A stretch of 9,212 nt of DNA from a virus (taxonomy: Duplodnaviria; Heunggongvirae; Uroviricota; Caudoviricetes): IMG/VR virus record IMGVR_UViG_2657244931_000007. The stretch is one strand, 5' to 3'. The notes beneath the pieces are model-generated. The model saw only the letters and a list, made by a program, of their open reading frames with translations, did no database searches and was not told the origin of the DNA. This document shows, piece after piece, positions 236 to 7,123 of this stretch (position 1 is its first letter; each line of letters opens with the position of its first letter). Both the position numbers and the translations under genes were made by a program.

Positions 236-254
236 AGGAGGCATTACGCCTCCT
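236..254. other. Inverted repeat AGGAGGC-N5-GCCTCCT overlapping the recombinase stop codon
   Basis: Perfect 7-bp arms at 236..242 and 248..254; no adjacent U-tract on the minus-strand transcript, so not a classic terminator. Confidence 0.4.
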
Positions 255-783
255 CTTCTTCCTTCTTAATTCGCTGTACCGTTGAAGGAGCAACATTAAA
301 GCTCTCGGCGGTTTTACGCACTGACACGCCAGCGGAAAGGGCTTTCTTTATACCTTCTCTATCTACTGCTTTTCCATTACCACGCTTTGTAGGATTGACG
401 GCTTGCGCTTCTCGTTTACGTTCTAGCATCAGTTCACGTTCACACGTTGCAACTGCCGACAACATCGTAAGCATCATCTTTCCCATCGCGCTTGTAATGT
501 CTGCAATGATCCCTTCTTTGTGAAATCGAACAATCACACCTCGATTATTAAGTTGTTCAACTAAAGCAAGGATGTCTAAGGTGTTACGTCCTAAACGGTC
601 GAGAGAGTGCACGTGTAAGGTGTCGCCTTCTCTCAGATAGGCTAAACACGCTTGTAAGCCTGGGCGGTTAGTGTCTTTACCAGACAGCTTATCTTCAAAG
701 ACTTTATCGAGAGTTACTCCTGCAAGCTGGCGATCAGTGTTCTGATCTACAGTGCTCACACGCTTATAACCGATATTGCTCAT
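244..783 (-). CDS. Small serine recombinase (resolvase / DNA invertase family), 179 aa
   Basis: N-terminus MSNIGYKRVSTVDQ has the catalytic serine at position 10 in the conserved Y-x-R-V-S-T context; VFEDKLSGKDTNRPGL and HVHSLDRLGRN match Hin/Gin/Tn3-resolvase catalytic-domain motifs; C-terminal helix-turn-helix (VSVRKTAESFNVAPSTVQRI). SD-like AAGGGG (complement of 790..795) sits about 6 nt upstream of the ATG at 783. Confidence 0.88.
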   Translation of the reverse strand: MSNIGYKRVSTVDQNTDRQLAGVTLDKVFEDKLSGKDTNRPGLQACLAYLREGDTLHVHSLDRLGRNTLDILALVEQLNNRGVIVRFHKEGIIADITSAMGKMMLTMLSAVATCERELMLERKREAQAVNPTKRGNGKAVDREGIKKALSAGVSVRKTAESFNVAPSTVQRIKKEEEEA

Positions 784-828
784 AAAAGCCCCTTAATGTA
801 TCGATTTGGCACTACTTCAATGCAAATG

Positions 829-858
829 AGTATACCGTATTCATTTGGTCTGTTTCAA
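829..858 (-). promoter_or_regulatory. Candidate sigma70 promoter for the recombinase gene (-35 TTGAAA, 18-bp spacer, -10 TATACT on the minus strand)
   Basis: Reverse complement of 853..858 is TTGAAA and of 829..834 is TATACT; sits about 45 bp upstream of the recombinase start codon. Confidence 0.35.
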
Positions 859-910
859 GCCTTATAGGTACGGAATATTACACGATTTAGCTGTATTCAT
901 TTGGTATGCC
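835..910. repeat. Direct repeats GTATTCATTTGGT (837..849 and 893..905) just upstream of the recombinase gene; candidate recombinase site (res-like) or operator
   Basis: 13-bp identical direct repeats 56 bp apart, overlapping the predicted recombinase promoter region. Confidence 0.4.
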
Positions 911-1352
911 TAATGGATACACAGGGGGATAGATTAAATGGTGTTCTGTTTATACAGGTTTATTTGTTAGATCAACAATTTGGCATTTCTAAACAGATGT
1001 TTGAACGTTGCCAAATGTATTGACAACACAAGAAAAGGGCTTGCTATGCCACGCATTACACGAAATAAGGCTGTAAAAACAAAATAAATTTTAAAATTTG
1101 CACAAACAAGAAAACTCGTTCAGAAACAAGCAGAACAATTTTTAGCCAACAATTTCTGATGGTGCTCTGTAAGCCGCATTACACAAGGCTTTGCGAAAGT
1201 GATGTAAAAGTGAAGAAAGTTAACATTGCACTTTTAAGCTACTTTTCATTGAATTTTTAGTATGGAATTACACAGGAATAAGTTAGGGATATTCTATGAT
1301 TTACACAGGGAATATAGGGGGATTATGGCACACACATAGAAAGGCATTACAC
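877..1352 (+). repeat. Dispersed array of an ATTACAC(A/G) motif, same orientation (copies at 877, 1055, 1178, 1267, 1299(TTTACAC), 1346; partial ATACACAGG at 917)
   Basis: At least 6 copies in about 480 bp, irregular spacing, often extended to cATTACACagg; candidate protein-binding iterons. Confidence 0.55.
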
Positions 1353-1510
1353 AGAGTGCTATGTGACAAATGGATGTAACGAGAGGTTACATTCAGCTAT
1401 CTGAAATGCTCTCTGTAAGAAAGTAGGTAGTAACGGTAGGTCACTGTGAGCTACCCCCACAGAATTCTGTTACCCCTATCAAGTCTGATACCCGATAAGT
1501 ATAAATAACA

Positions 1511-1611
1511 CCTAGGAAATGATTTCCGATCTATTTAGGAAGTAACCTAGGAAGTGGTTTCCTACCTACTTAGGAAATGAGTTCCTACCTACCTAGGAAA
1601 TGAGTTCCACC
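1511..1611. repeat. Iteron cluster: four copies of a 13-bp palindromic core GGAA(A/G)TG(A/G)(T/G)TTCC with shared CCTA...TACC flanks
   Basis: Cores at 1515..1527 (perfect palindrome GGAAATGATTTCC), 1550..1562, 1573..1585, 1596..1608; the last three centres are 23 bp apart. Confidence 0.7.
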
Positions 1612-1672
1612 AATACTATAATTAAATACTATAATTAAATAATATAAATAATATTCTTTATACTATATATAT
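1612..1672. repeat. Very AT-rich tract with tandem ATACTATAATTAA x2 (1613..1625, 1626..1638); candidate DNA-unwinding element next to the iterons
   Basis: Almost pure A/T directly 3' of the iteron cluster. Confidence 0.5.
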
Positions 1673-1680
1673 GATCTTTT

Positions 1681-1860
1681 GCCTTCCGGCGTTAGCTTCA
1701 CTCTCTGGCAAGCAGCCTTACTCCGCTACCTTTCGGGCTTCGTGGCTGGCCCGTTCCGCTCACACCGAAAGCAAAGCGTTACTTTCTTCGTGTAACTATC
1801 GTTGGCGGTAACGCCCACGAAGAAATACTATTGCGCTGTGCGCAGAAGAGTAATCACCTA
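1681..1860. other. GC-rich island with nested stem-loops; candidate structured non-coding RNA or structured DNA site (strand unknown)
   Basis: Clearly GC-richer than the flanks. 9-bp stem TTCTTCGTG (1784..1792) / CACGAAGAA (1816..1824) encloses GGCG-GTAA-CGCC (1804..1815; GNRA-type tetraloop); second stem CTTTCGG (1730..1736) / CCGAAAG (1765..1771). Confidence 0.35.
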
Positions 1861-1898
1861 ACCAATCATACTGATTGCTACCAATCATACTGATTGCT
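1861..1898. repeat. Perfect tandem duplication of a 19-bp unit ACCAATCATACTGATTGCT, each with internal inverted repeat CAATCA-TAC-TGATTG; candidate operator for a dimeric DNA-binding protein
   Basis: Units at 1861..1879 and 1880..1898 are identical; 6-bp arms with 3-bp spacer inside each. Confidence 0.7.
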
Positions 1899-1923
1899 TA
1901 CGTGTTAACTCTCTCTAACTCTT

Positions 1924-2081
1924 AATTCCACTTCCTACATTTAATAACTCTCGTTATTCTCTGTAGTTGTGTAATTACTCGAAGAGAGAGCGGCTAAAGC
2001 TCAATTACACTCTGCTTTCCTCGTGTAATTTCACTAAGCCTCAATACAATTCCACTTCCTACATTCTGTAGTCGTGTAATT
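1924..2081. repeat. Duplicated module AATTCCACTTCCTACATT + CTGTAG(T/C)(T/C)GTGTAATT; copy 1 is split by a 19-bp hairpin-forming insertion
   Basis: 18-mer identical at 1924..1941 and 2048..2065; 16-mer at 1961..1976 and 2066..2081 (one mismatch); 1942..1960 TAATAACTCTCGTTATTCT is present only in copy 1 and contains AATAAC/GTTATT inverted arms. GTGTAAT (reverse complement of ATTACAC) at 1969, 2023, 2074 and 1790 (GTGTAAC); forward AATTACAC at 2003. Confidence 0.65.
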
Positions 2082-2083
2082 GT

Positions 2084-2115
2084 TTTCGGTGGAAAAGCCA
2101 GAGGCGACACCGAAA
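2084..2115. other. Hairpin TTTCGGTG-N16-CACCGAAA; its 3' arm shares the 10-mer ACACCGAAAG with the hairpin at 1730..1771
   Basis: Perfect 8-bp inverted arms at 2084..2091 and 2108..2115; ACACCGAAAG at 1762..1771 and 2107..2116. Confidence 0.5.
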
Positions 2116-2125
2116 GAGAATTCTG

Positions 2126-2210
2126 ATCTTATTAATCTTATCTATCTTAGTTAATCTTCTTACTTATCTTACTTACTTATCTTACTTTATCTACTTTATT
2201 ATTAATAATA
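2126..2210. repeat. G-depleted T-rich tract of degenerate CTTATCT / TACTTA repeats
   Basis: Only one G (2150) in 85 bp on the plus strand; strong strand asymmetry. Confidence 0.6.
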
Positions 2211-2234
2211 GCTTTATAAGCTCTCTGTAGCTCT

Positions 2235-2294
2235 CTGACGCAAGAAACAGCATTCAGGAAGGGAATCACCTTAGAAAAGTGTTCTTTGCGTCAT
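2235..2294. other. Imperfect inverted repeat CTGACGCAAGAA ... TTCTTTGCGTCA, about 38 bp apart
   Basis: Arms at 2235..2246 and 2282..2294, near-complementary with a one-base indel. Confidence 0.35.
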
Positions 2295-2610
2295 AATGTG
2301 TTTTATGAAGGATTCAGAGGTGTTTCATAACAGGAGTGTATAGAGGATATTTTAATTAATTAAAAATAAGGGGTCTAAATGCTTCTCTAACAACATTAAG
2401 CAGGGTAGGGAATGGAAACGCATTGCCTACACATATAAGCTCACTACAGAGCTTTACAGAGCGTTTTATAAAGTAACTCTCTATCTTATATCTACCATTA
2501 CCTTTTCATATACCTAACAAATACAAAATAAGCCCCTTAAATAAGCCTCTGGCGAGCTAAACAGCCATTACATAAGGGAATGTGTTGCTTTTATCAAAAC
2601 TTCGTTAGAA

Positions 2611-2631
2611 CGCGTTTTAGAGCGTTTTAGA
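2611..2631. repeat. Tandem GCGTTTTAGA x2, with a related AGAGCGTTTTA copy at 2458..2468
   Basis: 2612..2621 and 2622..2631 are identical 10-mers. Confidence 0.5.
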
Positions 2632-2691
2632 CAATAAGGAGGAATAGCACTACACAGAAGAGCACGAATTGCTAAGAAAAAATGTAAGTGC

Positions 2692-2753
2692 ATGAAAAAG
2701 ATCAGATTTTTTTATGAAAAGGTATTGACAAATGTTTCTTTATATGTAATAAT
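2692..2753 (+). promoter_or_regulatory. Early-operon promoter: -35 TTGACA (2725..2730), 17-bp spacer, extended -10 TGtAATAAT (2745..2753); direct repeats ATGAAAA(A/G)G (2692..2700, 2714..2722) upstream and AGGTATT (2720..2726, 2754..2760) bracketing the core
   Basis: Perfect -35 hexamer, 17-bp spacing, TG-extended -10, about 110 bp upstream of the first plus-strand gene. Confidence 0.55.
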
Positions 2754-2807
2754 AGGTATTAGAGGGACAGAAAACATTCTTCTCTAAATAATCAAAATCA
2801 ACGCACT

Positions 2808-2843
2808 TTGAAGCCGTCAGGCTTGCAAGGTGTTTTTTCTTTT
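2808..2843 (+). terminator. Leader hairpin plus T-run between promoter and first gene; attenuator-like
   Basis: Stem AAGCC (2811..2815) / GGCTT (2820..2824) with loop GTCA, extendable with mismatches; palindrome CTTGCAAG at 2822..2829; T-run 2833..2843, directly upstream of the RBS AAGGAG (2852..2857). Confidence 0.3.
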
Positions 2844-2862
2844 AACTGAATAAGGAGTTTTT

Positions 2863-3051
2863 ATGAAATGGTTTACATCGGAGCACGTCATTCAGGCATT
2901 TAAAAAAGGTGAGCTTACACGACATCAAGTAGTAATGAATCGTAATATGGCAAGGAGTCGAGGTTATCCAGAGCGTGAAAAATGTTTTGACGATGCACTG
3001 AAAATTATTGATGAACTGCGTAAAGCTGAGAAAGAAGCAGAGAAAAAATAA
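2863..3051 (+). CDS. Hypothetical small basic protein, 62 aa (first gene of early operon)
   Basis: RBS AAGGAG 5 nt upstream of the ATG; downstream gene follows with its own RBS. Confidence 0.7.
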   Translation: MKWFTSEHVIQAFKKGELTRHQVVMNRNMARSRGYPEREKCFDDALKIIDELRKAEKEAEKK

Positions 3052-3075
3052 TAGACAAGAGAAGGAGAAAACCAA

Positions 3076-3264
3076 ATGAATATTAATTTTGATTCTGCAA
3101 CTTATAACGCGTTGTTAAATCGCGCAAAGGCAGAAGGGAAATCAATTCCAAAACTTGTTAATGAACTACTAATTACAGTCCTTACAAAGGAGGAACTAAA
3201 TGATCAAAAATATCAAAACAATTGCCGAAGCGAAAGCCAAATGTCTAAATCAGAAAGATGGTAA
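3076..3264 (+). CDS. Ribbon-helix-helix (Arc/Mnt/CopG-like) DNA-binding protein, 62 aa; putative transcriptional repressor
   Basis: MNINFDSATYNALLNRAKAEGKSIPKLVNELLITVL fits a beta-strand / helix / helix RHH pattern; RBS AAGGAG at 3062..3067; 3' end overlaps the next gene by 65 nt. Confidence 0.65.
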   Translation: MNINFDSATYNALLNRAKAEGKSIPKLVNELLITVLTKEELNDQKYQNNCRSESQMSKSERW

Positions 3265-3931
3265 ACAAAAATATGTAGTTGTTGAGCAATGGTTGAAGAT
3301 GTTTAAAAAATGGTATTCACCATCTGGTAATGAATACACCGCTACACTGCCAGCCGTTGAAATCTATAGCTATATAGCTGGATTCAATGAACAAGGGCAA
3401 GAATGTTACGCTACTCAAAAAACATTAGCTAATATTGGAATGGTTAGTGATCGCCAGGTTCGCAATATTATAAATATGTTTGTTGATATGGGAGTTCTTT
3501 CTGTAGAGGCACGGGACGGTCAAACATCACTCTATAAAGCATTACCATTTACAGATGCACATATTACTCCCCCAGGAGAATCATCACTCTCTGATCTTTC
3601 TGAGGCAGAAGAAGCACAGGAACAACCTAAAGGCCATAAACAGCCTTCTTTTGATGTTCTTGATGATTGGGATGCGCCTTTGCCGTGGGAGACGGAAGAA
3701 ACACCTGTTTCATCAAGTGAAAAGGTAGCTAATGATAATGAGGAGGATGTGTTAGAGAATTTTGCCTCTCTTATCATCCAGGAGAAACACACACGAACAG
3801 GAGGAGCATCATTTATTGAGTTTGCAAATTCACTAGCTTGTAGATACGGGCTAAAACGACCAAATGGTATTGAGGCATATTTTTCTAAGCATTACCCAAA
3901 TGTATATGACGACTTTGATATTCCATTTTAA
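3200..3931 (+). CDS. Winged-helix-like DNA-binding protein with acidic C-terminal region, 243 aa; candidate replication initiator or regulator
   Basis: Strong RBS AAGGAGG (3187..3193), 6-nt spacing; segment YATQKTLANIGMVSDRQVRNIINMFVDMGVLSVEA resembles a wHTH; C-terminal half is acidic and low-complexity (SEAEEAQEQ ... DDWDAPLPWETEE). Confidence 0.75.
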   Translation: MIKNIKTIAEAKAKCLNQKDGKQKYVVVEQWLKMFKKWYSPSGNEYTATLPAVEIYSYIAGFNEQGQECYATQKTLANIGMVSDRQVRNIINMFVDMGVLSVEARDGQTSLYKALPFTDAHITPPGESSLSDLSEAEEAQEQPKGHKQPSFDVLDDWDAPLPWETEETPVSSSEKVANDNEEDVLENFASLIIQEKHTRTGGASFIEFANSLACRYGLKRPNGIEAYFSKHYPNVYDDFDIPF

Positions 3932-3942
3932 TAAGGAGGGTT

Positions 3943-4221
3943 ATGATTCAATATTTAGTAAAAAATCAAGTAGACAGAATTCAGTGTAATGACACAGGAA
4001 AACGCATCTACGAGACACTTGCTTACCTCTATAAAGGAAAGCCAACACCGCTAAAATATAGCGATGTGTTACATCGAGCAGGGTGCTCTGAAGCTGGTTT
4101 AAAATTCTGGCTGAAACAGCTATCAAATTTCGGTGTTATAGAGATTAAAGAATTATCTTTCTCTACATTCAATCTCAAAAGACTAGATAAAGAAATAGAA
4201 TTCATCTATTCCACTCTCTAA
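3943..4221 (+). CDS. Small wHTH-like protein, 92 aa
   Basis: RBS AAGGAGG immediately upstream; YSDVLHRAGCSEAGLKFWLKQLSNFGVIEIKE has the same helix-turn-helix / wing pattern as the preceding protein. Confidence 0.65.
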   Translation: MIQYLVKNQVDRIQCNDTGKRIYETLAYLYKGKPTPLKYSDVLHRAGCSEAGLKFWLKQLSNFGVIEIKELSFSTFNLKRLDKEIEFIYSTL

Positions 4222-4262
4222 AATCTCTCTATGTAATTAAAATATAAAAGGAAAACATTATT

Positions 4263-4379
4263 ATGATAGTAGCTATGTATTGGTTATTGTTCTTTCTCAC
4301 GTTAGAAGCATATTTCGGGGTGTTTTCCTTTAAAAGAAAAGGAAAAATAAATGGCAAAAAGAAAAAACAACGTTGTTAA
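4263..4379 (+). CDS. Possible small hydrophobic peptide, 38 aa (MIVAMYWLLFFLTLEAYFGVFSFKRKGKINGKKKKQRC); single predicted transmembrane helix plus basic tail
   Basis: Not in the ORF track (too short); SD-like AAAGGA at 4247..4252, 10 nt upstream of the ATG; overlaps the start of the 4351 gene in another frame. Confidence 0.25.
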   Translation: MIVAMYWLLFFLTLEAYFGVFSFKRKGKINGKKKKQRC

Positions 4380-4761
4380 GAAAATCGGTGATTCAGCTTC
4401 TCTTCTAAGTAAACCTAAATCTATTCTAAGACGCAAAGACTTTAAAGAGCTAGTTACGCTCACCAAGCATAATAGCGCCCCTGGCGAATGGAAAACAGAG
4501 ATCATAGAACATTCTCCCTCTGTGCCTTGTGGAGATGAATTTAACGCCTTACAAGAAATCTTATCTTCAACACCTGGCGTATTCTGGAAACCTAGAAAAA
4601 GAAAAGAGTATATTGTTGATAGCTCTGATTTACGCAAATACCAGATTTTAGGATTTGAAGACTATAACCACTACGTTGGTTATCTCGCCACCAATGGCCT
4701 AAATAATTTAGTTCCAGACTTTCAAATTTTAGATAATGCTGATCACTATGGAGACTTTTAA
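4351..4761 (+). CDS. Hypothetical protein, 136 aa, basic N-terminus
   Basis: Same-strand ORF in operon context; weak SD AAAGGA about 7 nt upstream. Confidence 0.65.
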   Translation: MAKRKNNVVKKIGDSASLLSKPKSILRRKDFKELVTLTKHNSAPGEWKTEIIEHSPSVPCGDEFNALQEILSSTPGVFWKPRKRKEYIVDSSDLRKYQILGFEDYNHYVGYLATNGLNNLVPDFQILDNADHYGDF

Positions 4762-4762
4762 T

Positions 4763-5098
4763 ATGAACAAAAACACGTATGACACAATTTACTCACTAAT
4801 TAATTATTATGAGGATGATTACCTCCTGCCTTTAAACCGCGCTGAACTTGAAGCATACAAAGAAAACACGCCAGCGGCACTAAATGAGGCGTTTAAACAC
4901 TGGGATTTAGCTGTGAATGCCTTTGAGCACCTCTCTAAGCGTGTAGAGATGCTCTGTAAGCGTGAGAACGCATACCTGACCTGCTGTCAGATATGGGAGC
5001 TATCAAATTGGATAGAAGGTATTGAATCGGACGTTCGCTATGTAGGAGACGGACTTGTTGAACTAGCTCAACGCTTAGGCGCTATCACAGAAGAATAA
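4763..5098 (+). CDS. Hypothetical protein, 111 aa (start chosen at the ATG at 4763 rather than the ORF-track start at 4736)
   Basis: GGAG at 4749..4752 gives proper spacing to the ATG at 4763 and removes the overlap with the upstream gene; the ATGs at 4736 and 4748 have no SD. Confidence 0.65.
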   Translation: MNKNTYDTIYSLINYYEDDYLLPLNRAELEAYKENTPAALNEAFKHWDLAVNAFEHLSKRVEMLCKRENAYLTCCQIWELSNWIEGIESDVRYVGDGLVELAQRLGAITEE

Positions 5099-5103
5099 AA
5101 AAA

Positions 5104-5120
5104 GCAACAAAAAAGTTGTA
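5104..5120. promoter_or_regulatory. 17-bp element GCAACAAAAAAGTTGTA (CAAC-N6-GTTG inverted repeat), copy 1, 7 bp upstream of the late -35
   Basis: 15/17 identical to the copy at 5390..5406. Confidence 0.5.
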
Positions 5121-5127
5121 AAATATC

Positions 5128-5156
5128 TTGACATTTCATATATTGTATGTTAATAT
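5128..5156 (+). promoter_or_regulatory. Late-operon promoter: -35 TTGACA (5128..5133), 17-bp spacer, TG-extended -10 TAATAT (5151..5156)
   Basis: Same architecture as the early promoter at 2725. Confidence 0.55.
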
Positions 5157-5162
5157 AATTAT

Positions 5163-5380
5163 ATAGGGGTGATTATTTTTCCTTTATTGGTTCGATATTA
5201 AAAATTCTTCTTGTCGTTAAAGGGGAGTAAAATCTCCGCTCCCCGCTTCTCCTCCTCCTTAAGTGTCATTATTACCTCTTTTTTCCTTTGTTATGCATAC
5301 ATCTTGGAGTATGCATAACATAGGGTAATTACATAGGTACAAGTTAATAAAAGGCGGCTTTAAATGCTGCCTTTTATTTT
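5163..5380 (+). ncRNA. Candidate ~215-nt leader or small RNA from the late promoter to the intrinsic terminator
   Basis: Contains hairpin GGGGAG/CTCCCC (5222..5244), CU-rich anti-SD-like tract CTTCTCCTCCTCCTT (5246..5260), perfect 11-bp inverted repeat GTTATGCATAC-N8-GTATGCATAAC (5290..5319), and ends at the terminator 5352..5380; no convincing ORF inside. Confidence 0.35.
5352..5380 (+). terminator. Rho-independent terminator (stem AGGCGGC / GCUGCCU with one G-U pair, loop UUUAAAU, then UUUUAUUUU)
   Basis: 7-bp stem at 5352..5358 / 5366..5372, followed by the T-run 5373..5380. Confidence 0.55.
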
Positions 5381-5389
5381 GCCCGTTAT

Positions 5390-5406
5390 GCAACTTAAAA
5401 GTTGTA
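5390..5406. promoter_or_regulatory. 17-bp element GCAACTTAAAAGTTGTA, copy 2, just past the leader terminator and 37 bp upstream of the 5443 gene
   Basis: 15/17 identical to the copy at 5104..5120. Confidence 0.5.
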
Positions 5407-5442
5407 TTTCTTACTTTAAACAAGGTAACAAGGTTTATATAA

Positions 5443-5655
5443 ATGTTGTTCTTAAATGATAAAGAGCAAATCATCAAGTATAAAGATGAAATGCTGAAAA
5501 TTAATCCACAAATTACCGAAATGGTAGCTAAATACGCTGGGTGTTCTGTCGAGGAAGTAGAAAGATGTGTTGAAAAATATTTTTCTCCTTCTTCTCCGTC
5601 TACACCTTCCCTTAATGAATTAATCAAATTAAAAGCTAAGGAGATTACTAAATGA
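5443..5655 (+). CDS. Hypothetical protein, 70 aa, first gene of the structural operon
   Basis: ATGA start/stop overlap with the next gene suggests translational coupling; weak SD AAGG upstream. Confidence 0.6.
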   Translation: MLFLNDKEQIIKYKDEMLKINPQITEMVAKYAGCSVEEVERCVEKYFSPSSPSTPSLNELIKLKAKEITK

Positions 5656-6023
5656 TTATTGATTTAGACACTCTTTTTCCAAGTCGAAAGACGTTTACAG
5701 ATCTGGTGGCTTATTGTACTGATCCGTTTGCCTCTGTAGAAAACAAGGTTTTTGCTTCTCTTCCTGCTGATGTTGAATGCGGAGACTTGATCACCAGCAC
5801 TGGCGCTAAATATGAATCAGGAGATGATATCTATGTTGTTATGAGTGAATTTGTAACTGCTGATTCAAATAAAACAGTTAACGTGCTTCGTGCTAATGCC
5901 GGACTCGTTTGCATCAAAGCTGATGCCCTGAATGCCGAAGGCGCTGTAAAAGAAGCTGCTATTGCAGCTCTCGCTGCTAAAGGCTTCCAGCTTGAAGGCT
6001 TTAATACGGTTTTCACTTCTTAA
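5652..6023 (+). CDS. Hypothetical protein, 123 aa; decoration-protein-like by position and size only
   Basis: RBS AAGGAG at 5638..5643; immediately upstream of the capsid-like gene; no sequence resemblance to a known decoration protein was recognised. Confidence 0.7.
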   Translation: MIIDLDTLFPSRKTFTDLVAYCTDPFASVENKVFASLPADVECGDLITSTGAKYESGDDIYVVMSEFVTADSNKTVNVLRANAGLVCIKADALNAEGAVKEAAIAALAAKGFQLEGFNTVFTS

Positions 6024-6041: not shown

Positions 6042-7070
6042 ATGATTCTAGGTAATGATTACGTTGATTTAGCTCCTCTGTTCTCTGCGCATAGCACTAG
6101 AAATTATCTGCTTTCTACTCTTGATTTTACGGATTCTGTAGGGGTTACATCTCATAAAGTAGCTGTTTCCCAGCTTGTCGAAAGCAACGAATCTCTCTTT
6201 AACAAAGAGACAAGCCGTTTTAGTTCTGAACACAATGTTACTAAGCGAGAACAAGGTAAAGAATGGCTGATCGAAATCCCTTACTTCCTGCGTGAGGATG
6301 TTATCCGTCCCTCTGATGTTCAAGGCAAACGTAAGTCTGGCACTGATTTTCAGGAAACACTCACTGATATTTATGCGGAATATATCGCTAAACACCACGT
6401 AGCGTATCAGCGCACTAAAGAGAGCGTGCTGGCGGCTTCTTTGTTCTCTGGCAAAACTTACACGCCTAAAACTGATGATGTGTTAATTGAGTGGGGCAAG
6501 CTGTTTAACGTATCAGCTATGAAAGCCACTGTGAACGCCTCCAGCACTGACACCACGAAGATTTTTAAAGAATTTGATCAGATTGCTACTGACATTATCG
6601 AAAAAGCACAAAGCCAGGCGGCTGCTGTAGAGCGTATTGTTGTTTTCTGTAAGCCGGAAGCCTTCTCTGCAATTCGATTCTCTGCTGGTATGGCAAACGC
6701 ATTCCAGTACGTAAGCCCACTGGAAGAAGGGAACGTTGTGTATCAGCGTCGTGACCTGCTACCAGGAGTGACAGCGTTCACTATTCCAGGAACTAACATT
6801 GATGTTGTTAAACTGGTAGATCCGCTACACCTGGCACATATGACCGCAGACGCTGTAGCTGTGCCTAAATTCGCTAAAGGCTCTAACGTATATCAGAACA
6901 TCTACGGGGCTGCTTCCAGCACCTTTGAACTGATCAATGCCGATCCTACTGAGGTGTACAGCTATAGCTATGAATCTTCTCGTGGTGATGCTGTGAACGT
7001 TGTTACAGAGAATAGCCAGATGGTTGTAAACCACGGTGTAGGCTTCTCCGTTCAAATCACTGTTAAATAA
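6042..7070 (+). CDS. Putative phage major capsid protein, 342 aa (possibly lambda gpE-like; tentative)
   Basis: Size, beta-rich composition, and a strong intrinsic terminator directly downstream, as often seen after major capsid genes. Short segments (LAASLFSGKTYTPK, DLLPGVTAFTIPG) loosely recall lambda gpE from memory; not verified. Confidence 0.45.
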   Translation: MILGNDYVDLAPLFSAHSTRNYLLSTLDFTDSVGVTSHKVAVSQLVESNESLFNKETSRFSSEHNVTKREQGKEWLIEIPYFLREDVIRPSDVQGKRKSGTDFQETLTDIYAEYIAKHHVAYQRTKESVLAASLFSGKTYTPKTDDVLIEWGKLFNVSAMKATVNASSTDTTKIFKEFDQIATDIIEKAQSQAAAVERIVVFCKPEAFSAIRFSAGMANAFQYVSPLEEGNVVYQRRDLLPGVTAFTIPGTNIDVVKLVDPLHLAHMTADAVAVPKFAKGSNVYQNIYGAASSTFELINADPTEVYSYSYESSRGDAVNVVTENSQMVVNHGVGFSVQITVK

Positions 7071-7089
7071 TATTTTAACGTGTAATAGA

Positions 7090-7123
7090 GGCGTGGCGTG
7101 TATTCACGCTTCGCCTTTTTTTT
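7090..7123 (+). terminator. Strong rho-independent terminator after the capsid-like gene
   Basis: GC-rich stem GGCGTGGCGTG / CACGCTTCGCC (7090..7115) with TATT loop, followed by 8 Ts (7116..7123) and more T-rich sequence. Confidence 0.75.

Follow-up and report, generated by a model that had tools for sequence, protein, structure and literature searches.

What do two almost identical 17-bp direct repeats do on either side of a promoter, a leader and a terminator, immediately ahead of a capsid operon? The repeats lie in a 9,212-bp stretch of viral DNA (IMG/VR record IMGVR_UViG_2657244931_000007, Caudoviricetes; hereafter the window, meaning this whole stretch), which forms part of a putative phage satellite carried by Escherichia coli. 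An earlier note on this DNA, made from the sequence alone, had offered two explanations: paired operators for one regulator, or the scar of an inserted or recombined regulatory cassette of roughly 270 bp. In this study, we favour the former and propose that the 17-mers are paired 14-bp operators, each a dyad of the form 4-N6-4 recognised by the same dimeric regulator, which flank a poised late unit of a satellite-like island; in our estimate this reading is about evenly balanced between being right and being wrong.

Two near-identical dyads

The upstream 17-mer (GCAACAAAAAAGTTGTA) and the downstream 17-mer (GCAACTTAAAAGTTGTA), which were read from the sequence of 4800-5800 and are located in Table 1, agree at 15 of 17 positions; both mismatches fall in the 6-bp spacer, and the CAAC and GTTG arms are perfect in each copy. 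A pattern search for perfect GCAAC-N6-GTTGTA recovered exactly two sites in the 9212 bp, which are the two 17-mers themselves, and no third copy or complement with up to 3 mismatches was found in the window, 0.06 being expected by chance. When the window was shuffled 2000 times with its dinucleotides preserved, a comparable pair, defined as two 4-N6-4 dyad 17-mers at least 15/17 identical and within 400 bp of each other, arose in 0.25% of the shuffles; one further pair in the window that answers to this definition was attributed to iteron-like repeats at 1561/1584. The pair is real and clearly non-random, and its description in the earlier note as near-identical direct repeats with an internal CAAC-N6-GTTG dyad was borne out.

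Promoter, RNA and terminator between the dyads

The 17-mers also bracket the promoter, the leader and the terminator as the earlier note had it, since all three lie between them. The near-consensus sigma-70 promoter (TTGACA-17-TAATAT, with the TG of an extended -10) is a sequence match, and its predicted start at ~5163-5166 falls inside a conserved TATAGGG; the promoter motif is conserved in all relatives, and TA(A)GGG at the predicted start in all lineages. Relative to this start, the dyads stand at ~-51.5 and ~+234 as two isolated sites, neither of which overlaps the core promoter. The upstream 17-mer is A-rich and spans -60 to -44, over A-tracts where an UP element would lie.

Downstream of the start, a non-coding RNA of ~220 nt is predicted, either a terminated leader or a small RNA (sRNA). 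Folding of 5163-5392 gave a minimum free energy of -66.1 kcal/mol (z = -5.2), with 0 of 200 shuffles as stable, and hairpins are predicted at 5222-5244 and 5289-5320, the latter with 12 perfect pairs. Indels of 1, 3, 9 and 17 nt separate the cassette variants in 11 diverse copies, thus a coding role of this region is excluded. No Rfam 15 family was found for the RNA, whether the window, the cassette alone or the leaders of three relatives were searched, and the best Rfam match in 5090-5450 was STnc250, with 18 bits against a gathering score of 42. In the predicted fold a CU-rich stretch remains unpaired, and within it CCTCCTTA at 5254-5261 (a motif also given as CCUCCUUA) equals the anti-Shine-Dalgarno sequence with which 16S rRNA ends at its 3' side; strains differ in how many CCT units this stretch has, and CCUCC motifs recur in the RNAs of relatives. 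The arms of the terminator hairpin (5346-5358 and 5366-5378) are followed by TTTTATTTTG; a simple terminator scan missed the hairpin at 5346-5378, probably owing to a G-T pair. The terminator with UUUUAUUUU and an A/U-rich segment at 5321-5345 would be compatible with a candidate Hfq-dependent sRNA. In addition, GTTATGCA is present twice, at 5290-5297 in the 5' arm of the perfect hairpin and at 5385-5392 directly before the second 17-mer, and in read-through transcripts the 3' arm of that hairpin (5309-5319) could pair with either copy.

A promoter scan found no promoter-like site on the + strand between 5157 and 6009, and the capsid operon, predicted to have no promoter of its own, would be expressed only by read-through of the terminator. 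A role of the downstream dyad as an activator site for a second promoter after the terminator was rejected, since across relatives its centre is 27-56 nt from the ATG, which does not always leave room for a promoter and a ribosome-binding site; nor did the scan find a promoter-like site there. Both 17-mers are on the transcribed strand, and no terminator was found between the early operon and the upstream 17-mer.

We propose that the unit is poised in the manner of lambda pR'-6S RNA-tR': the promoter would be active at all times and make a structured RNA of ~220 nt that stops at the terminator, and the late genes would need antitermination. The upstream site, which would mark the end of the early operon, could tune the promoter and meet transcription arriving from that operon, and the downstream site, between the terminator and the ribosome-binding site, could block or license transcription that passes the terminator. 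The bound protein might damp the promoter, block transcription entering or leaving the unit, or load an antitermination factor. The anatomy, the conservation, the positional specificity and the concerted change of the half-sites (described below) are shown by the sequences; action of the sites at the DNA level, their binding by one and the same protein and the way in which control would run are inferred.

Conservation of the unit in related islands

Matches to the region 5000-5500, 90-100% identical, were obtained in 308 E. coli genomes, 302 of which have 80% or more of it, and across the 11 diverse copies the cassette region is 96% identical column by column. Nucleotide diversity, computed on 39 non-redundant window-type loci, is 5.1% in the upstream 120-amino-acid (aa) gene p120, 2.1% in 5099-5162 (first 17-mer and promoter), 2.9% in the RNA, 0.8% in 5385-5442 (second 17-mer to the ATG), which is the lowest value of the region, 2.7% in p70 and 6.0% in p123. 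We read the low diversity of both site segments as a probable sign of purifying selection.

Relatives were gathered by their capsid protein (61-77% capsid identity; other E. coli lineages, Buttiauxella, Kluyvera, Citrobacter, Scandinavium, Enterobacter and metagenomes) and by a 136-aa protein (Klebsiella and Enterobacter). Every lineage examined shows the same layout, in which the stop codon of the last early gene is followed by a strong promoter, the TA(A)GGG start region, a non-coding RNA, a terminator, 30-90 nt and the 70-aa gene, thus the window holds a short form of a family-wide unit. The non-coding stretch of the relatives is hairpin-rich and 400-1000 nt long, against ~220 nt in the window, and their terminators, which occupy the corresponding position, have stems that differ by compensatory changes (GGGGC/GCCCC, GGCGAC/GTCGCC, GGCTAC/GTAGCC). 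An nhmmer search linked the promoter and 5' RNA of the window to relatives at the orthologous place, marginally (E = 0.1-0.4). An alignment of 29 long leader RNAs was too mosaic for a global consensus fold, with several local helices that covary.

The long leaders are worth recording in their own right. Those of L013 (5800-6640), L014 (5690-6610), L015 (5510-6110), L019 (2770-3330) and L121 (5090-5450) are without an Rfam match; a covarying RNA core is common to L013 (~6337-6400) and L014 (~6322-6385); and the 29 RNAs of the L015 class share modules in mosaic fashion, AACGCGAAGGAA ahead of the start codon being invariant among them.

The synteny of the unit bears on the second explanation of the earlier note. 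If the repeats were a scar, they would have arisen when a mobile regulatory cassette of ~270 bp inserted, as its target-site duplication or recombination joint, or else they would be res/hix-like sites from which the serine recombinase encoded at 244-783 could excise it. Such an origin is suggested by direct repeats that flank a self-contained promoter-RNA-terminator unit, by the invertase/resolvase gene in the window, and by an RNA whose length runs from ~220 to 1000 nt between lineages. However, the unit is found in the same place in all lineages, even those with a left-end tyrosine recombinase and no annotated invertase, and most of the region is present in nearly all of the matching E. coli genomes, as counted above. 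The comparison that the earlier note proposed, presence or absence of the cassette between single copies of the 17-mer, gave no empty site: among ~60 window-type loci, none has a single 17-mer and no cassette. The spacers differ and the palindromic arms are kept, which is the opposite of the decay of a neutral duplication. Lineages that have no upstream dyad show no flanking-repeat similarity above shuffles, and the flanking repeats that had been seen by eye in L013 and L014 proved no better than shuffles. As for recombinase sites, hix and gix are 26 bp long and inverted, and the 17-mers, which are direct, are unlike them; the dyads also occur in relatives with a tyrosine recombinase and no annotated invertase, which does not fit hix or res sites. 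Taken together, the scar had to be given up as highly improbable.

Distribution of the dyads

The positions of the dyads were counted in 65 non-redundant loci of 516 kb, of which 37 are window-type (276 kb) and 28 belong to the L015 class (240 kb). Perfect YAAC-N6-GTTR occurs in the window-type loci 34 times at the upstream position, 36 times at the downstream position, 15 times at a single capsid-gene position and once outside these three places, and in the L015-class loci 26 times downstream, 21 times upstream, 5 times at -1550/-1600 and once elsewhere. Both dyads are kept, and both as CAAC/GTTG, in 36/39 non-redundant window-type loci, and both are TAAC/GTTA in 12/32 L015-class loci; the comparison of the two sets establishes that the half-site type has changed in concert at both positions, and that the spacers have drifted. 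The gap of 9 bp between the upstream dyad and the -35 is identical in the window (GTTG, TAAAATATC, TTGACA) and in class-B relatives (GTTA, CAAAATGTC, TTGACA), in which the upstream dyad, TAAC-N6-GTTA, overlaps the stop codon of the preceding gene. An alignment of 20 distinct downstream sites has 80 cells for the four core pairs, and pairing is kept in 79 of them, with arms YARC/GYTR and an outer pair that is T-A in 14 and C-G in 6, and pairs outside this 4-bp core are unpaired in most. The spacers are variable and mostly A/T-rich (AAAAAA, TTAAAA, AAATAA, AGAAAA, GCTTTC), and the family-wide dyad consensus is GTAAC-N6-GTTAWT.

These counts also bear on the idea that the repeats have no specific function, in which case the upstream copy would be A-tract context of the promoter, the downstream copy an unrelated AT-rich palindrome, and both would be kept together with the whole region. 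The placement of the A-rich upstream copy where UP elements sit is consistent with this, and so is the conservation of the E. coli intergenic region, which is ~96% throughout, so that conservation of the 17-mers within E. coli is not specific; the window moreover has an excess of dyads in general, its perfect 4-N6-4 dyads numbering 70 where dinucleotide-preserving shuffles average 45.7. On the other hand, a pair of this kind is rare in the shuffles, the motif is found almost exclusively at these two positions in the related loci, both half-sites have changed symmetrically between lineages, and the downstream segment is the least diverse of the region. We consider absence of function improbable.

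DNA site or RNA hairpin

The dyads might alternatively be RNA hairpins and not DNA operators, serving antiterminator binding, as nut/boxB does for N, or the processing or stability of late mRNA; early-operon transcripts would then carry the upstream copy at their 3' end, and read-through transcripts would carry the downstream copy in their 5' untranslated region. The transcribed strand of both copies and the lack of a terminator ahead of the upstream one, noted above, would allow this. Folded as RNA, the 17-mers of the window reach -4.3 and -7.6 kcal/mol, and the dyads of L021, L022, L106 and L024 top stems of 10-11 bp at -12 to -16 kcal/mol with G-U pairs tolerated; of these stems, those of L021 (-16.4 kcal/mol) and L024 (-12.4 kcal/mol) are 11 bp long. 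In the Klebsiella lineage the place after the terminator is taken by a 9-bp inverted repeat unrelated to the dyads, thus a hairpin there may be a general feature, and a G-to-A variant at 5390 converts a G-U pair to A-U. However, most relatives have only four A/U-rich pairs, class-B dyads folding at -0.6 to -1.8 kcal/mol, which is no better than shuffles, and stability is not conserved across the family (-0.6 to -16.4 kcal/mol). Pairing beyond the 4-bp core is absent in most sequences, neither a boxA-like element nearby nor a small arginine-rich N-like protein was recognised, and the fixed gap between the upstream copy and the -35 suggests a tie to the promoter at the level of DNA. Deviations in the arms are A-C as often as G-U (L107 and L022 versus L071 and L021), which speaks against the hairpin reading; being split evenly between G-T and A-C, they do not settle the choice between DNA and RNA.

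What is invariant is the sequence of the 4-bp arms and their arm-to-arm spacing of 10 bp, one helical turn. Since it is arms and spacing that are invariant, and not the stability of a hairpin, and since the distance to the -35 is fixed, a dimer that recognises DNA is the favoured reading, and we regard the hairpin reading as possible but rather unlikely.

Candidate binding proteins and weighing of the operator reading

Pfam and PHROGs scans covered ten open reading frames (ORFs) between 244 and 7070. The DNA-binding candidates in the element are a winged-helix protein of 92 aa and small ribbon-helix-helix (RHH)-like or helix-turn-helix (HTH) proteins only. The 92-aa early protein (3943-4221) is predicted to adopt the winged-helix fold (predicted local distance difference test, pLDDT, 82), and its model best matches CodY (C-terminal), ArsR, TubR, IclR and MarR domains, with template modelling scores of ~0.6, which makes it a candidate DNA-binding protein. 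As the binder of the dyads it was rejected, since lineages that lack the upstream dyad, or lack dyads altogether, encode it as well. The 70-aa protein was set aside because its HTH-like stretch is acidic and its sequence does not change with the dyad type, and the 62-aa RHH-like protein because a lineage that lacks the dyads has an 85%-identical copy. Conservation of the 136-aa protein extends over the whole family, Klebsiella included, and this protein has no family match and a model of low confidence (pLDDT 57). As to host regulators, the CytR octamers, AATGCAAC and GTTGCATT, resemble the downstream copy of the window at 7/8 plus 7/8 positions; none of the boxes of CytR, IHF, Fis and TyrR fits the family consensus. 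In viral contigs, the 17-mers were found in the island itself and in a handful of unrelated matches, and no helper phage with these operators was seen.

Several points weigh against paired operators for one regulator. No protein could be linked to the dyads, neither the presence nor the sequence of the 92-, 70- and 62-aa proteins tracking the presence or type of the dyads, and no Q, Cro/CI (HTH_3) or N-like family was recognised in the ten ORFs. Only two independent lineages underlie the concerted half-site change, and L021 has unlike half-sites, TAAC/GTTA upstream and CAGC/GTTG downstream. In 19/32 L015-class loci there is a downstream dyad only, the upstream position having a different dyad, TGMAT-N4-ATKCA, and in the L013, L014 and Klebsiella lineages the motif is absent from both positions, save for two L014-class loci with the downstream dyad. 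In window-type loci, 13 different distances separate the two sites, from 271 to 294 bp; because the helical phase is therefore not kept, a rigid, phase-dependent DNA loop is unlikely. In some lineages the downstream dyad tips a 10-11-bp stem with G-T pairs, as an RNA hairpin would, and start site, termination and read-through are sequence predictions. The operator claim of the earlier note is thus supported in part: it is the reading that the comparative data favour, by the retention of both sites in the window-type loci, by the recurrence of this dyad type at the same positions in distant relatives and by the concerted arms; the single regulator is putative, many relatives have the downstream site only, and a role at the RNA level is possible.

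The island and its genes

Some match to the window was found in 760 of 5426 complete E. coli genomes, and at least 80% of the window in 265. The best match is an island of ~12 kb (L001 3030-15302) between the tRNA-Thr gene thrW, next to proA, and a tyrosine integrase gene; beyond the window, it carries a gene annotated as baseplate protein. Island copies in E. coli often bear insertion sequences; APEC O1, NC101 and Res13-Lact-PEA14-20 are among the strains with the island. In another E. coli locus (L006 1501-1627, NZ_CP148423), the island ends just after the stop codon of the 120-aa gene and adjoins a truncated ecpC, the cassette and the late genes being deleted, which is not a precise excision between the 17-mers. 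Portal, terminase and protease families were not detected in the ten ORFs scanned (67-aa and 609-aa ORFs not included), and the island, whose genes within the window are listed in Table 1, is a putative phage satellite that bears a capsid gene. No description of the island family or of its RNA was found in the searchable literature, and the family is apparently undescribed.

Table 1. Positions of the dyads, the unit between them and the surrounding genes in the window
Feature	Position	Strand	Basis or remark
Serine invertase/resolvase (serine recombinase) gene	244-783	-	family scan
Long non-coding stretch	800-2860		iteron-like repeats at 1510-1599
Early operon	2863-5098		small proteins (62 aa, 2863-3051 and 3076-3264; 92 aa, 3943-4221; 136 aa, 4351-4761; 120 aa, 4736-5098) and a replication-initiator-like HTH_36 protein
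Upstream 17-mer, CAAC-N6-GTTG dyad	5104-5120	no strand	centre ~-51.5 from predicted start; end 9 bp before -35
Sigma-70 promoter, extended -10	5128-5156	+	sequence match, 10/12 plus TG
Predicted non-coding RNA, ~220 nt	5163-5384	+	fold, indels
Unpaired CU-rich stretch, CGCTTCTCCTCCTCCTTAAG	5245-5264	+	predicted fold
Intrinsic terminator	5346-5382	+	13-bp stem AATAAAAGGCGGC / GCTGCCTTTTATT, then U-run
Downstream 17-mer, CAAC-N6-GTTG dyad	5390-5406	no strand	centre 45 nt before ATG of first late gene
70-aa gene (p70)	5443-5655	+	first gene of late operon
123-aa gene (p123)	5652-6023	+	second gene of late operon
Lambda gpE-type major capsid gene	6042-7070	+	Pfam PF03864, E = 2.4e-14
67-aa gene and 609-aa gene			after capsid gene and 7088-7122 terminator

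Further features of the island were noted. The repeats in the long non-coding stretch are three iteron-like units of ~32 nt that contain TAGGAA-N4/5-TTCC dyads, and in Klebsiella relatives similar AGGAATGTTCC repeats lie directly upstream of the cassette promoter (L121 4975-5025). An 18-nt inverted repeat (5-22 and 2347-2364, 94% complementary) brackets the serine invertase gene and ~1.5 kb of non-coding DNA, and the segment between its copies may be invertible. After the capsid gene, the terminator at 7088-7122 is a second strong intrinsic terminator, with a sub-threshold likeness to Rfam caiA (28.9 bits against 55.5). Pieces of the window at 162-207, 3062-3228 and 3295-3555 share 96-99% DNA identity with strictly lytic E. 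coli phages of the rV5-like and phi92-like groups: the 62-aa RHH-like gene (3062-3228) has 99% identity with Justusliebigvirus phages, among them PaulScherrer, in which it is a 61-aa ORF, and the segment 3295-3555, which encodes the N-terminal part of the replication-initiator-like protein, shares 96-97% with the rV5-like phages muut, inny and Mt1B1_P17. Identities of this order suggest recent gene exchange with candidate helper phages.

Significance

If the proposal holds, a concrete control point would be placed ahead of the capsid operon in an apparently undescribed island family of Enterobacteriaceae, and the poised-late-promoter logic of lambda pR'/tR' would extend to satellite-like elements. 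There would be a new RNA family to catalogue and a handle on how such islands sense a helper phage, candidates for which are the lytic phages of the rV5-like and phi92-like groups, given the gene fragments that they have in nearly identical form. A bolder proposal is that the RNA and a dyad-binding factor form a helper-phage-sensing switch, the window holding the short form of a new satellite RNA family with members of 400-1000 nt in Klebsiella, Citrobacter, Kluyvera, Buttiauxella and other E. coli relatives. The RNA would decide between stopping and entry into the capsid operon, and CCUCCUUA might act in trans on translation of the helper or the host. We think this switch unlikely, although the significance of the locus would rise if the RNA family proved to be one; a trans-acting anti-Shine-Dalgarno role of the exposed CCUCCUUA is, judging by the predicted fold, possible.

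Comparison with known systems

In the operators of phage 434 type (ACAA-N6-TTGT), as in the dyads described here, conserved 4-bp arms enclose a variable, mostly A/T-rich spacer of 6 bp, and the half-site centres are one helical turn apart. Unlike the operators of 434 and other dimeric HTH regulators, the two sites are 271-294 bp apart and do not overlap the -35 or the -10, and no Cro/CI gene was found among the scanned ORFs. The gal operators OE and OI offer a likeness in placement, with two like operators, one upstream and one downstream of the promoter region, which leave the core promoter uncovered. However, the spacing here is ~2.5 times longer and not phase-conserved, the downstream site lies beyond the terminator, and many relatives have no upstream partner.

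The immunity region of P4 (CI RNA, seqA/seqC) is likewise found in a satellite-type element, with a constitutive small-RNA region, premature termination that guards downstream genes, and direct repeats on either side. In P4, however, the complement of the repeats is part of the RNA itself, whereas the upstream repeat here is outside the transcript of the promoter; a search for P4-like seqA/B/C pairing returned, as reverse-complement matches with at most 3 mismatches, only the two palindromic sites themselves. With lambda N/nut the unit shares small hairpins with A-rich loops on the transcribed strand, one before the terminator in early transcripts and one before 7088-7122. In place of a GNRA-like pentaloop the loop here has 6 nt, most relatives have stems that are too weak, an N-like protein was not recognised, and boxA is lacking, since no CGCTCTTA-like sequence occurs in 5080-5450.

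The lambdoid arrangement pR'-6S/StxS-tR'-Q is comparable in having a strong promoter directly before the late, structural genes, here a sequence match, and a transcript of ~200 nt that ends at an intrinsic terminator, so that downstream genes are reached by read-through only, as is predicted here. The terminated by-product RNA of a lambdoid late promoter can itself be a regulatory sRNA, as StxS is (PMC7547250). Differences are that no Q family was found in the ten ORFs scanned, that the island carries a capsid gene only and is not a lambdoid phage, and that the leaders of its relatives are 400-1000 nt long. The lambda Q-binding element sits between the -35 and the -10, whereas the candidate sites here are upstream of the -35 and after the terminator. 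The logic of a poised late promoter, a terminated small RNA and dyad operators is a known one, which would here be found in a new setting, a satellite-like island with an RNA not in Rfam, and in a new arrangement, one operator lying ahead of the promoter and the other beyond the terminator.

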